From Atractiella rhizophila (lineage: Eukaryota), in the NCBI GenBank assembly GCA_021432655.1, contig MU271628.1, positions 1 through 37,915 on the forward strand: a stretch of 37,915 nucleotides of DNA, read 5' to 3'. The first letter of the stretch is position 1, and every line of letters begins with the position of its first letter. The translations under genes and the position numbers were made by a program. The notes under the pieces were generated by a model. The model was not told the DNA's origin. It searched no databases and saw only the letters and a list, made by a program, of their open reading frames with translations. Positions 286-34,484 of this stretch are shown here, piece after piece.

Positions 286-777
286 CTTGAGACTAATCTG
301 CGGTTTATTGATAGGTTGTTTGGAATGAGATATACAGTTTGTAACCAAACTTAACAAGAACTCCAAAGTTGAGGGTTACTGCACTATTATAGGATGATTG
401 ACGTCCTTGCTATGCGATAAAGCAGTCTAAAAGACTGTCTGACAATATCACAAGGGCGTACTGTAAACAGAGGTCCCAAGAAGAAGGCCTATGGACTTCT
501 TCCGTGACTTGGTACGTTGCCTGGTGTAGAGACTTGTTTACAGTTTCCAAATGCAGCACTCCAACACAACTCCTTTATCCTTATCAAGATTTGATCACTC
601 ACTGTTGATAGTACCTTCAGCTCCTAGTCAGAATACGCCGATCCTGCTAGTCTAGGGTATGCACCGATCCCCTGCTGAAAATAATCTAATCTCCAACCCC
701 TGCTCCTTGTTGATACGGTCCAAAGTCTGTTGTTAGGTGCGGGTGCGAGATAAGGGTTTTCTCCCGGCTAGAGTGTT

Positions 778-789
778 GGGCTCATAACC
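778..789 (-). promoter_or_regulatory. Primer-binding site, Copia-type (tRNA-iMet fragment)
   Basis: Minus strand GGTTATGAGCCC directly abuts the LTR end ...CAACA. Confidence 0.85.
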
Positions 790-987
790 TGTTGAGACTA
801 GGATTCTTCCTATCACACTGGGAAGCGTACATTGCAGAAGAAACTCACCTAGGATTCTTCCTATCACACTGGGAAGCGTGAAGGGAAAAATTCCTTGTGA
901 GGGGGGTATATGTGTATTTTACATTGCGGGGCATTGCGGGGCATTCATGTGACCATAATTGTCACTGTTTGTCGCTTATCTCCAACA
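790..987 (-). repeat. Copia 5' LTR (198 bp) with an internal perfect 31-bp direct repeat (798-828, 849-879)
   Basis: TG...CA termini with imperfect inverted ends (TGTTGAGA / TCTCCAACA). CTAGGATTCTTCCTATCACACTGGGAAGCGT occurs twice, 20 bp apart. Confidence 0.85.
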
Positions 988-1921: not shown

Positions 1922-2374
1922 TGTCAGGCTTGCCCCTACACATTACCGAAATGCACCATCTGAAGTCACGTGACCTACTTTGCCTCGTCATGGGATCACG
2001 TGCCTCCCCATCGCCGCTTTGCTCATGCTCACGCTGTCCACCGCTCAGCAAACCTTACACATTTCGCTGGTCTGCACCGTCCCATTTTCGTCTTACTATC
2101 CTTTCTCACTAGTACTGTTCGTATCTCTTATTTCCGAGTATCCCTTCATTGCTTTCCTGATCTAGTTATCTTACGTGTTTCAAGAAGTAGAGTTTATGGC
2201 AGTGTCTTTACATATGTATATATACCTTGAGATGTAGTGGTGGCGACCTTAGAGTATTCTCTTAGGTTTACCTCCACTACAGGTTAGTCTTCTCATGCCA
2301 TACTATTCGCTTAGGTTTACCTCCACTACAGACGCATCGCCCGTCAGCGACCGCACATAGTGTCAGCCCTAACA
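1922..2374 (+). repeat. Gypsy LTR copy 1 (5' LTR, 453 bp)
   Basis: TGTCAGG...CCCTAACA termini. Homologous to 3508-3997, 14392-14882, the split copy at 9318-14225, and the 3' half of 8238-8685. TATATATA at 2217-2224; 28-bp direct repeat at 2255-2282 and 2304-2331. Confidence 0.92.
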
Positions 2375-3507: not shown

Positions 3508-3997
3508 TGTCAGGCTTGCCCCTACGCATTACCGAAATGCACCATCTGAAGTCACGTGACCTACTTTACCATGCCATAGGACCACGCGCCTGCCCATCGC
3601 CGCTTTGCTCACGTTCTCGCTGATCGCCGCCTTCCCCTGTCTCACACTAATCGCCGCTCAGCAAACCTTAACCATTTCGCCAGTCTGCACCGTCTCCATT
3701 ATTGCTTTATTGTCCTTTCTCACTTGTACTGCTCAGTATGTCTTATTTCCGAGTTTTCCTTTTATTGCTTTCCTGATCTAGCTATCTTACATGTTTCAAG
3801 AAACTTATGATACAGTTTATGGCAGTGCTTTTACATATGGATATATACATCGAGATGTAGTGGTGGTGACCTCAGAGTATTCTCTTAGGTTTACCTCCAC
3901 TACAGGTTAGTCTCCTCATGCCATACTATTCTCTTAGGTTTACCTCCACTACAGACGCATCGCCTATCGGCGACCGCACATAGTGTCAGCCCTAACA
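3508..3997 (+). repeat. Gypsy LTR copy 2 (490 bp)
   Basis: TGTCAGG...CCCTAACA; perfect 28-bp direct repeat at 3878-3905 and 3927-3954; preceded by a PPT-like tract. Confidence 0.92.
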
Positions 3998-7703: not shown

Positions 7704-8020
7704 AGTCCTAGTCTTTGGTACTTAGGTTAAGGCAAGGCGCCGACTTGCTCCTCAACGGGCAGGTCGGCAACTTGGTCATTGGTGAGTCCATTCATCTCCT
7801 GTCAAAGACGAATGCTCATTGTGTTCTCACACCATCACCAATGTCGCATTTACGAAAATGGCCCTCAATCGTGAGGTATCCTCCCCCTTACTTTAAGAGG
7901 ATCTACTCCTCTGCACACCTCACTGGGTGAATCCCTAGTCACATTGTTGAACATAGGTCTAGGCGAGGCGCCGGTCTGTTCAACGGACAGATCGTGATCG
8001 GTTTGTTGGTGAGTTGTCCA
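7661..8020. repeat. Diverged direct repeat (~130 bp units at 7661-7790 and 7888-8020) between pol and the 3' LTR
   Basis: By-eye alignment shows shared blocks ACTTTAAG, GGGTGAA..CCTAGTC, TAGGT..AGGC.AGGCGCCG, TCAACGG.CAG.TCG and TTGGTGAGT. Confidence 0.75.
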
Positions 8021-8237: not shown

Positions 8238-8685
8238 TGTCAGGTTTGCATCTTAGGCAAATCGGCGCCTGTTCGCCTGTTCGCATTCTACACAAATCTG
8301 GGAACTGTCGCCACTCTGAGTCTCCTGTCGCCTATTTGCATGCAGTGCAAATCGGCGCCGGGTCGCCTGTTCGCCCATTCGCCCATTTGCGCCTACATCA
8401 CCACTTAGCCCAATTGTCCCTATCCTCCTCTTATTAACTCCACGTAATCCCACTATCACTTCCCCTTTTAGTTCTCTTACATGTTTCATCTGCTCTCCTC
8501 TATGCTCTGTGGCAGTGTTATTCCGCTTGTATACATAGATCGGAGAGTAGTGGAGGTGACCTTAGAGTATTCTCTTAGGTTTATCTCCAATACAGGTTAG
8601 TCTTCATGCCATATCATGCTCTTAGGTTTATCTCCACTGCAGACACATGGCCCGTCGGCGACCGCACATAATGTCAGCCCTAACA
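8238..8685 (+). repeat. Gypsy LTR copy 3 (3' LTR, 448 bp; different subfamily with a distinct U3)
   Basis: TGTCAGG...CCCTAACA, preceded by the PPT-like tract. The 3' half aligns to the other LTRs. The 5' half differs and has two GCAAATCGGCGCC...TCGCCTGTTCGC repeats. Confidence 0.88.
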
Positions 8686-9512
8686 TGAACTCCCTCAGAT
8701 TTTGAATTTCCTGGACACCAAAGTCACTTTGCCGTGTAGATCCATGTATGGATCCACACTCCTCACAATATTCTGTTAACCCATCCGTCTATACAATGTA
8801 CACTGCTGTTGCAGGCTTATGCCATAAGTCTCAAGCTGTCAACTACCCTGTCTGTGTAGTGTTGCCAGCTTTCACCTCCAGCCTTGAGCTAACTGCGACA
8901 CATTAATTGGACCATAAGTGACCTTAAGTGCCAATATCTGTGAGATCAGCTCTCCCTCCCATTCTACACTTTGGGTTAGGGTCATGTTCTGGTTCCACAG
9001 CAATTTGACCACCATCACACTGTGGACCAGGTCCAGCGTACAATATTTACCTACATATACCTGCTACGTTGCAGTTAGACAAAGTTATCCAAAGCACAAC
9101 TCTGCAACCTCACTGTATGAACCTTGCCTGTTGATGTTACTACATCATATTGTCCGATAGTACTGCTTAATCTATATCGTTTCATTATGATTTCAGCTTA
9201 GGGTTATATAAAACCCTTCACTTATCAATAAGCTGTTTGATGGGAAGAGTGACAAAACTAAAAGCCCAGAAAACGAAATTCTAGTCCTAGTCCAATGCAA
9301 AGTGAGTAAGTTACTGCTGTTAGGGCTGACACTATGTACGGTCGCCGACGGGTGATGCATCTGTAGTGGAGATAAACCTAAGGATAATATGACAGAGAAG
9401 ACTAACCTGTAGTGGAGATAAACCTAAAATACTCTAAGGTCATCACCACTACGTCTCAATTTTATACTTACACAAGTGTGTCAATGGCCTTCGTCCCTCA
9501 GCCTCCCCAACC

Positions 9513-13642: not shown

Positions 13643-14391
13643 TCCCAACCCACTCACAAGGGGCATGGCCCCTCGAACCCCACAGTGATCAGATCATGTA
13701 AGAGTTCGAGTCCAGTAGGAAGTGTATTTTTTTAAACACTTGCAGAATAAAATTTCCTTGTAGGTTCAGAAAGGGGCAAGCATATGGGTCACAATGGCAT
13801 AATTTACTTCATGCTATTGTGCATGGCGAGGGAGGTGTAAGGGCTCAAAAATGCCTCTTATGACTCATGCCAAGAACTGATGAACCTTAGAGGATAGCAT
13901 ATGCATGGATACTGCCATGAACAGTAAAGTATATCTCATGAAACATGTAGAATAGCTAGATCAGGAAAGCAACAAAGAAAATAATTGGAAATAAAATATA
14001 ATAAGTAGGACAGTTAAAATGTTGTCAAAACGAAACAGTGACAGTGCAGACCGGCGAAATGTACAAGGTTTACTGAGCAGCCATTTGTATGAGAGGAGGG
14101 AAAGCGGTGGAGAGCGCGGGTATACGCAAAGCGGCAAGGGTAGACATGAGATCCTATGAAGTAGGAAGGTAGGTCATGTGACTTAGGCTGGCGCATTTCA
14201 GTAATGTGCAGGAGCAAGCCTGACAACTGCATCGCGCGCTGATCACCAAACTCATCAACCAACCGCTCTCCCAAGCTCACTCAGCTCTCCTTTCAACTAT
14301 CGCCCACTTTCTTTATCATCAATCCTCCAACCCAAGAATACATTCACTACCTGCAGCCACACCCACCAAAAAAAATTTGTGACCTTGAATG

Positions 14392-14882
14392 TGTCAGGCT
14401 TGCCCCTACGCATTACCGAAATACACCATTTGAAGTCACGTGACCTACTTTCACCACATCATAGGATCACGTGCCTGCCCATCGCCGCTTTGCTCACGTT
14501 CGTGCTGATCGCCACCTTCCCCTATCTCACACGAATCGCCGCTCAGCAAACCTTACACATTTCGCTGGTCTGCACCGTCTCCATTATTGCTTTATTGTCC
14601 TTTCTCACTTGTACTGCTCAGTATGTCTTATTTCCGAGTATTCCCTTTATTGCTTTCCTGATCTAGCTATCTTACATGTCTCAAGAAACGTATGTTACAG
14701 TTTATGGCAGTGCTTTTACATATGTATATATGCATCGAGATGTAGTGGTGGTGACCTCAGAGTATTCTCTTAGGTTTACCTCCACTACAGGTTAGTCTCC
14801 TCATGCCATAATATTCTCTTAGGTTTACCTCCACTACAGACGCATCGCCTGTCGGCGACCGCACATAGTGTCCGCCCTAACA
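14392..14882 (+). mobile_element. Gypsy solo LTR (491 bp)
   Basis: TGTCAGG...CCCTAACA; very similar to 3508-3997; 5-bp TSD GAATG (14387-14391) / GAAGG (14883-14887) with one mismatch. Confidence 0.92.
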
Positions 14883-20737: not shown

Positions 20738-21017
20738 AATTTGCGTAGTTCAAGAGTGAATATAGTAACATTCGTGTGAAATCGATTAGAGTCATTTCTA
20801 GCAGGTTTGGTGAGGACAGAAAGCTGGCGGTTCGGTTTGATTTGATAAGAAGGGCAACACAGGCACAGGCGCAGGGAGAGAGTACGTTAAATGGTATAAA
20901 AATGTCGGTAAAATACGCGTAAGGCGGGACGGTTTTATTATTGAATTCCTTGAAACAGTCGATTAAGCACTTTATCCAATGATCTAGCAACTTTAAGTGT
21001 GAATGGGGGAGACGTAA

Positions 21018-27129
<6,112 letters not shown>

Positions 27130-27889: not shown

Positions 27890-28288
27890 GCCTGCGAATT
27901 CCCATACCTGTCTGCTGAGGTCGCCTTCTTTGCCGTGGTTTCAAGTTGGTGATTGCGCTGCCTCTTATAATGAAGCACGAATAATGTTCCGAGCTAGACC
28001 TCCCACTTTCACCAGCGCTGAATCATCCCAGCGAGCTTCGTCTTGAGAATTGAAAGCTGGATGATGTGCATAGGTTCTGGCCTCTTCTGGTCACGGTCAC
28101 CATTGCCGTTGTCGTAATCAGCTTCATCATCCCCTACCGAAGCAGACAAAATACCCGAAGCAAACAAAAAGGCGCAATGGGGTAGAGCTGGATGGTATAA
28201 ATATCCTTGCAAGGGAAGCCAGTTTTATTTCGAATTCCTTGAAACCATCAATCGTACTTTTAGCCATCATCCAGCAGGGGGACGAAAA

Positions 28289-34484
<6,196 letters not shown>

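Follow-up and report, generated by a model that had tools for sequence, protein, structure and literature searches.

The Gypsy LTR, its direct repeat and its hairpin

The window, by which we mean the whole stretch of 37,915 nt analysed here, contains degenerate copies of a Ty3/Gypsy chromovirus. Pfam domains between 4177 and 7703 follow one another in the order RVP_2, RVT_1 (1.5e-21), RT_RNaseH, Integrase_H2C2 (2.8e-17), rve, SH3_Tf2-1 and Chromo (4e-9), corresponding to a chromovirus pol (PR-RT-RNase H-IN and then a C-terminal chromodomain) whose reading frames are broken. The aligned Gypsy copies carry direct LTRs of the TG...CA type, delimited by TGTCAGG and CCTAACA, and the 3' part of the LTR under study recurs in self-BLAST at 3508-3997, 14392-14882, 8510-8685 and, on the minus strand, 9301-9459 (Table 1). 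We refer to the well-kept copies as LTR 1922, LTR 3508 and LTR 14392, and to the diverged copy ending at 8685 as LTR 8238. A diverged 5' part of the Gypsy LTR (69-74% identical) lies inverted at 13898-14226 on the minus strand, 166 bp upstream of LTR 14392, and belongs to a nested or rearranged cluster of LTR fragments. Elsewhere in the window, 21007-27081 and 28277-34415 form a tandem duplication with a unit of ~7.3 kb, 82% identical over 6.2 kb and 95-99% identical in the first kb, with one minus-strand ORF showing a weak ABC-transporter membrane-domain match.

In DNA contigs from two runs of one sample, the summed depth over 2228-2374, the LTR core running from the TATA box to the LTR end, is 300,000-800,000, against ~90-230 for the single contigs listed and 7,000-120,000 for the U3 upstream of 2228. 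Contig loose ends before 2191 and 2234 represent other U3 variants joined to the same LTR core and, together with the contrast in depth, they indicate many subfamilies with a common core and different upstream U3.

Table 1. Features of the Gypsy LTR, of its copies, of the second LTR family and of related LTRs in metagenome loci
Feature	Position	Strand	Basis or remark
Ty3/Gypsy chromovirus LTR (LTR 1922)	1922..2374	+	453 bp, TGTCAGG...CCTAACA; copy alignments and self-BLAST
TATA box TATATATA	2217..2224	+	direct reading; TATA-like in 5/5 aligned copies
Outer helix, 5' strand GAGA	2229..2232	+	weak, 4 pairs; in the MFE of longer contexts
Hairpin, 5' arm (probably the last 22 nt of U3)	2233..2254	+	folding, copy search, alignment
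Hairpin, loop TATT	2255..2258	+	4 nt, opening the 28-nt repeat form; inferred RNA start
Hairpin, 3' arm (within repeat 1)	2259..2281	+	folding, copy search, alignment
Outer helix, 3' strand TCTY	2288..2291	+	MFE of longer contexts, five-copy alignment
Direct repeat, copy 1	2261..2282	+	22 nt, exact in LTR 1922; ends AG, then GT
Intron-like unit, 49 nt, GTTAGT...ACAG (splicing putative)	2283..2331	+	direct reading, repeat search
Direct repeat, copy 2	2310..2331	+	possible alternative partner of the 5' arm, at a spacing of 76 nt
Hairpin in LTR 3508-3997	3856..3904	+	-27.2 kcal/mol
Hairpin in diverged LTR ending 8685 (LTR 8238)	8546..8594	+	-22.9 kcal/mol; pair equivalent to 2243:2271 is G-U
Hairpin in minus-strand LTR	9408..9453	-	-20.2 kcal/mol; pair equivalent to 2243:2271 is A-U; 3-nt deletion in the apical stem
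Hairpin in LTR 14392-14882	14741..14789	+	copy search, alignment, window ranking
Second LTR, probably 5' LTR of a copia-type element	731-925	-	runs off the window start
Analogous hairpin of the second LTR	846..899	-	5' arm 899-875, loop 874-871, 3' arm 870-846
Direct repeat of the second LTR, 31 nt	798..879 (879-849, 828-798)	-	frames a 51-nt GTGAGT...TAG unit
Related chromovirus LTRs in metagenome loci	L042 251-628, L043 1077-1430, L061 5147-5565, L080 1516-1920		TGTCAAG...CATAACA ends

The LTR core contains a direct repeat of 22-28 nt that frames a 49-nt GT..AG unit, the longer, exact 28-nt form being found in LTRs 3508 and 14392, where it starts with the TATT of the hairpin loop. The repeat word occurs at 10 places, two per LTR, against a chance expectation of 0.00, and in 5/5 LTRs both copies carry the same letter at a C/T site. 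Copy 1 ends in AG and is followed by GTTAGT, while copy 2 ends in ACAG and is followed by unrelated sequence; the unit therefore resembles a small intron whose end repeats the stretch preceding it. Its intron-like features (GTTAGT...TTTAC...ACAG) are contained within the 49 nt, and the donor-like CAG/GTTAGT lies 28 nt after the RNA start that we propose below. Loss of the unit is rare, with at least one contig skipping about one unit among those listed against depths of hundreds of thousands, so that either splicing of the unit never takes place or the presence of both copies is inherited stably. Each repeat copy also contains the quasi-palindrome AGGTTTACCT (2264-2273 and 2313-2322), and in RNA from the inferred start these two copies are predicted to pair together.

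The initial annotation described a stem of ~20 bp at 2233-2281 whose 3' arm was the first copy of this repeat. The sequence reads as it had been quoted, it folds into a single imperfect hairpin of 20 pairs, and the 3' arm is indeed copy 1 of the direct repeat with its 49-nt period. Folded as RNA, the hairpin reaches -25 kcal/mol with a z of -6.55, and 0/200 dinucleotide shuffles were as good; the majority form, as in LTR 3508, is stronger (-27.2 kcal/mol). Among 25,244 overlapping 50-nt windows covering both strands, hairpins of the Gypsy LTR (-25 to -27.2 kcal/mol, z -6.1 to -6.6) rank 1st, 3rd and 4th. The 2nd rank belongs to a separate hairpin at 7729-7778 on the plus strand (-27.9 kcal/mol, z -4.24), located between the chromodomain ORF, just 5' of it, and the 3' LTR. 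An Rfam search of the whole window at gathering score returned 0 matches.

The 5' arm was found in 5/5 LTRs, starting at 2233, 3856, 8546, 9453 (minus strand) and 14741, with a chance expectation of 0.00, and the hairpin is kept in all five copies, two of which are ~85% identical subfamily copies. When the five copies are aligned, 24 pairs (the 20 of the stem and 4 of an outer helix) are 95.7% paired over 116 cells, whereas shifted registers are 38-56% paired. The hairpin is thus real and far beyond chance. The stem stops one base before the donor, and the outer helix, paired in 18/19 cells across the five copies with every change one-sided, is predicted to enclose the donor (G/GTTAG) in a 6-nt bulge. 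Although pairing of the 5' arm with copy 2 is possible, in the predicted folds the arm takes the nearby copy 1.

The sense RNA strand folds better than the antisense strand in 5/5 hairpins tested, namely -27.2/-23.5, -25/-23.8, -22.9/-17.1 and -20.2/-15.1 kcal/mol for the LTR hairpins and -23.3/-18.3 kcal/mol for the second family described below. Folded as DNA, the hairpin has no strand preference (-13.6 vs -14.8). That both strands fold about equally as DNA, and that each LTR has the word three times and in both orientations (one inverted and two direct copies), would fit an element acting at the DNA level, either as protein-binding sites or as a core-promoter palindrome. Such an element would hardly call, however, for 22-nt arms whose G-U oppositions make the antisense RNA fold weaker, and the second family, of unrelated sequence, keeps the complementarity rather than a shared motif; we regard this explanation as highly improbable.

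A further inverted repeat spans R/U5 of the Gypsy LTR (2319-2368, 3942-3991 and 14826-14875) and includes the end of repeat 2. Its bias is opposite to that of the U3/R hairpin, the minus strand of 3938-3995 folding at -25.5 vs -12.4 kcal/mol, and it could matter for minus-strand DNA or antisense RNA. Because of this minus-strand bias, a strand bias due to G-U pairs is by itself an unreliable sign.

Variation within the stem

A compensatory base change had been claimed for one pair of the stem, 2243:2271 (alignment columns 55:83). The series itself was recovered exactly: three copies have G-C at this pair, LTR 8238 has G-U and the minus-strand copy has A-U. Its reading as covariation fared otherwise. 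Only this pair changed on both sides, and in one sequence, amounting to 1/24 pairs and 1/116 cells in the alignment of the five copies within the window, which is not significant, and 186/500 column shuffles score as high. The copy with A-U is decayed (7 C>T changes, and G>A at 2/30 G sites, in a 150-nt core), and LTR 8238 carries 3 G>A changes; from these decay rates, with two T-bearing copies and two G-U pairs in each, we estimate the chance of a neutral change from G-U to A-U at ~0.3. Pair-breaking changes also occur: two copies have one at hairpin position 1, LTR 8238 has one at position 45 and LTR 1922 one at position 12, besides the apical deletion of the minus-strand copy. Taken together, the single pair, the shuffles, the decay and the pair-breaking changes do not uphold the claim of covariation. 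Furthermore, since each arm is an inverted copy of the other, context-dependent transitions would be expected to hit mirrored sites on both strands. At position 9 of the hairpin in LTR 8238, a U-U opposition became A-U.

Variation among the DNA contigs (two runs, one sample) was read from 40 of 102 variant rows, and three common variants fall in the hairpin among these 40. The first, 2244 C>T, accounts for ~99% of depth and adds a U-A pair with A2270, the C being private to LTR 1922. The second, 2250 T>C (55-67% of depth), lies at a mismatch position. The third, 2271 C>T (40-56% of depth), changes G-C into G-U; it is a lineage-level variant, mirrored in repeat copy 2 at 2320 (~40%). The change 2243 G>A is absent from the same 40 of 102 rows, so that most T-bearing copies probably keep G-U. 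All three common variants are compatible with pairing, which carries little weight because a random transition would be compatible with a chance that we estimate at ~0.6. Among those 40 rows, variants are at least as dense in the hairpin as in its flanks.

RNA start, U3 and the donor

The initial annotation placed the 5' arm ~9 nt after the TATA box and upstream of the likely RNA start. The arm does begin 8 nt after the box, and it occupies the interval between the box and the start of the direct repeat, a position that fits a start at the hairpin apex. In both LTR families the repeat begins sharply 31-38 nt past the first T of the TATA box and within 2-7 nt of the apex. A TATA-directed start usually lies 31-38 nt after the box. 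If copy 2 derives from the 5' exon of the RNA, the start of the repeat marks the start of the RNA, which probably lies, judging from this arrangement, at the apex of the hairpin. With a start there, the 5' arm would be the last 22 nt of U3 and occur only in the 3' part of the RNA; we consider it probable that the arm is U3-only.

A start upstream of 2233 would instead make this an R-region hairpin present at both RNA ends, comparable to TAR of HIV-1 and acting on stability, translation or strand transfer. Hairpins in the R region are common in retroviruses, and metagenome LTRs of related chromoviruses have a pair of small hairpins directly after TATA. Set against this are the mere 8 nt that separate the TATA box from the arm and, in both families, the sharp beginning of the direct repeat at the apex, 31-38 nt after TATA, and we hold such a start to be quite improbable.

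Tf1-type self-priming was considered as well and found no support. Elements of this type have an RNA whose first ~11 nt can pair with the sequence immediately following the 5' LTR; a search of the LTRs for 7-mer complements of the 45 nt past the LTR gave 0 in LTR 1922 and 0 in LTR 14392, with one match, 35 nt downstream, for LTR 3508. By eye, the inferred start TATTCTCTTAGG (2255-2266) of LTR 1922 is complementary at 10/12 positions to 2368-2379, the LTR end plus the next 5 nt. LTR 14392 shows a similar complementarity and the other copies do not, and it may be due to chance or be a trace of self-priming.

Starting from the probable apex start, we compared the predicted folds (partition function) with and without U3. 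In RNA that begins at the inferred start, repeat 1 has a mean unpaired probability of 0.54-0.71; once U3 is included this drops to 0.16-0.29, and it does so in 5/5 copies. The earlier proposal that the hairpin hides repeat 1 next to the donor therefore divides into two parts: masking of repeat 1, confined to RNA containing U3, is predicted in all five copies, while the donor is not predicted to become less accessible. In the three well-kept copies the unpaired probability of the donor 9-mer goes, without and with U3, from 0.44 to 0.66, from 0.37 to 0.39 and from 0.52 to 0.56, and in the two older copies it is predicted to be about unchanged.

These predictions bear on a switch of the foamy virus type, in which the 5' donor would recruit U1 snRNP and silence the LTR poly(A) site, the hairpin at the 3' end would exclude U1 and permit polyadenylation, and the repeat would be secondary. 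As far as the relevant passages on foamy virus go, 13 nt of U3 refold the donor region and trigger polyadenylation at the 3' LTR (PMC3694450). In the Gypsy LTR a single base separates the end of the stem from the donor, which the weak outer helix would hold in its 6-nt bulge, and in the second family the donor GU is predicted to be paired at the stem base, with an unpaired probability of 0.01 when U3 is present. In the Gypsy family, however, the predictions give no loss of donor accessibility with U3, in the second family the donor is predicted to be mostly paired either way (unpaired 0.17 without U3 and 0.01 with it), and neither a poly(A) signal nor a poly(A) site could be located within the 43 nt past the acceptor. 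As the main role of the hairpin, this switch is in our judgement unlikely.

A second LTR family and the possible role of the fold

A second LTR with the same layout lies near the start of the window. Its assignment to a copia-type element is probable, with a weak match to Retrotran_gag_3 (copia-type gag) in 1-375 of the minus strand whose E of 5.7e-4 is below Pfam's cut-off. The analogous hairpin (-23.3 kcal/mol, z -5.44) was missed by a repeat search with 6-nt seeds and detected by folding. The order of parts is a TATA-like box, the 5' arm, an apex at the start of the repeat, repeat 1, a donor at the stem base and repeat 2; the loop lies 5-8 nt past the point where repeat 1 begins, the remainder of that repeat forms the 3' arm, and the donor GT (848-847) is inside the 3' arm. 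By eye, the two LTRs have no evident likeness save the last 7 nt, CCTAACA. Finding the parts arranged in this same order in a different sequence argues more strongly for a constrained design than does the pair 2243:2271.

The recurrence also bears on whether the 5' arm might be a functionless passenger, an inverted copy of the RNA 5' end left by fold-back or template switching of the nascent cDNA. As a fold-back at the RNA 5' end predicts, the axis of symmetry lies 2-7 nt from the start of the direct repeat in both families, and the direct repeats themselves look made by reverse transcription, copies 1 and 2 sharing the letter at the C/T site in 5/5 LTRs. Nevertheless, the same mismatches and G-U pairs are present in all copies, which points to an old arm that is not renewed; the arm is retained across subfamilies with different upstream U3 and is found in two unrelated families; and a fold-back strong-stop DNA would be unable to anneal to R. 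We therefore rate a by-product of reverse transcription as rather improbable. Indeed, every copy has kept the fixed mismatches (U-U, bulge, G-U) while the two direct repeats remain identical to each other, so that the 5' arm is not simply re-copied in each cycle.

The module was also sought outside the window, in 81 related chromovirus loci (1 viral contig and 80 metagenome contigs) with integrases 36-46% identical. An exact direct repeat of at least 14 nt with an AG/GT junction occurred in 0/81 loci, and the exact pattern of repeat 1 plus donor gave 0 matches in metagenome contigs. The LTRs of one related family included in Table 1, four LTR pairs in all, carry two adjoining small hairpins from ~28 nt after TATATAAGG, and are without the exact repeat module or intron-like unit. 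Within this 81-locus scan, the repeat-hairpin module appears confined to this genome or lineage.

The hairpin is a well-supported structural observation, and it is its function that we infer. Since retroelements copy themselves through RNA, a spliced intron should be lost from the progeny. Identical LTRs must, moreover, behave differently at the two RNA ends, and a fold formed only in RNA containing U3 would be a simple discriminator. We tentatively suggest, as a possibility falling somewhat short of probable, that the U3-dependent fold tells the 3' copy of R apart from its 5' counterpart. The hairpin of the sense-strand RNA would straddle the LTR's border between U3 and R. With transcription probably starting at the apex, RNA from the 5' LTR would carry the 3' arm alone, that is, the first exon-like repeat, free and proximal to the cap; the RNA 3' end would still contain U3, and there both arms could fold together. 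The hairpin would thereby mark the 3' copy of R as different and bury repeat 1 as far as the base preceding the donor. In this 3' copy the 49-nt unit would be likely to stay intact, being spliced less or unused as a landing site. Every new LTR would then inherit both repeats. An element with a spliced leader would need its 3' copy kept unspliced, and the sole difference between the two copies would be the upstream context. A side effect on the use of the poly(A) site, as in foamy viruses, is possible.

The initial annotation had proposed, in addition, that masking would steer strand transfer to repeat 2. The direction would be right, but on paper the steering appears unneeded, because strong-stop DNA made from a spliced 5' end would pair contiguously with repeat 2 and the sequence downstream of it.

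A broader reading is that Gypsy and Copia LTRs converged on a U3 arm resembling the 3' end of strong-stop DNA (here minus-strand strong-stop DNA), which would act as an intramolecular decoy on the first exon in the 3' copy of R only. The intron would escape both splicing and mis-registered transfer, and an element spliced at its 5' end would pass an intact intron to its daughters. This convergence is a speculative proposal that we think less likely to be right than wrong by a wide measure. If the U3-dependent distinction of the two R copies is true, it would extend discrimination between RNA ends to fungal Gypsy and Copia elements, help to explain how an LTR intron persists, and offer, in 22 nt of U3, a compact testable system for telling 5' and 3' LTRs apart.

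Stable hairpins located where R begins or at the splice donor, such as the TAR, poly(A) and SD hairpins of HIV-1, are known to affect strand transfer, polyadenylation and splicing, TAR being at the very 5' end of the RNA. Retroviral R hairpins are contained entirely in R or the leader and form at the RNA 5' end, whereas here the 5' arm needs U3 if the inferred start is right. In maize LTR retrotransposons, spliced LTR transcripts have been reported and called the first evidence of LTR introns (bioRxiv 10.64898/2026.05.08.723830). The maize work is alike in that LTRs can contain introns; it differs in that those introns average 1303 bp and occur in non-coding LTR transcripts, vs 49 nt here, the word 'hairpin' has 0 occurrences in the text of the preprint, and its passages that bear on these introns describe no duplicated exon. 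In the literature searched we came across no account of an LTR retrotransposon in which a U3-encoded arm pairs with a duplicated leader exon.

To our knowledge, a U3-dependent fold telling the LTR ends apart has been shown experimentally for foamy viruses only. There, according to the relevant passages of the study, 13 nt of U3 refold the region of the splice donor and switch on polyadenylation in the 3' LTR (Schrom et al. 2013, PMC3694450). As those passages present it, the foamy virus system has a splice donor within the LTR soon after the RNA start, U3 nucleotides confined to the 3' end that alter the adjoining fold, and a U3-dependent fold that tells two otherwise identical LTR copies apart; the Gypsy LTR would share these features, its donor being putative, its RNA start probable and its fold predicted. 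The foamy virus effect, on U1 binding and polyadenylation, was established by SHAPE and reporters, while ours comes from fold prediction. Unlike what those passages describe for foamy virus, the putative acceptor of the Gypsy LTR also lies within the LTR, the predicted accessibility of the donor is not lowered, and the U3 arm is predicted to pair with the whole of a short putative first exon that is duplicated inside the 49-nt unit.
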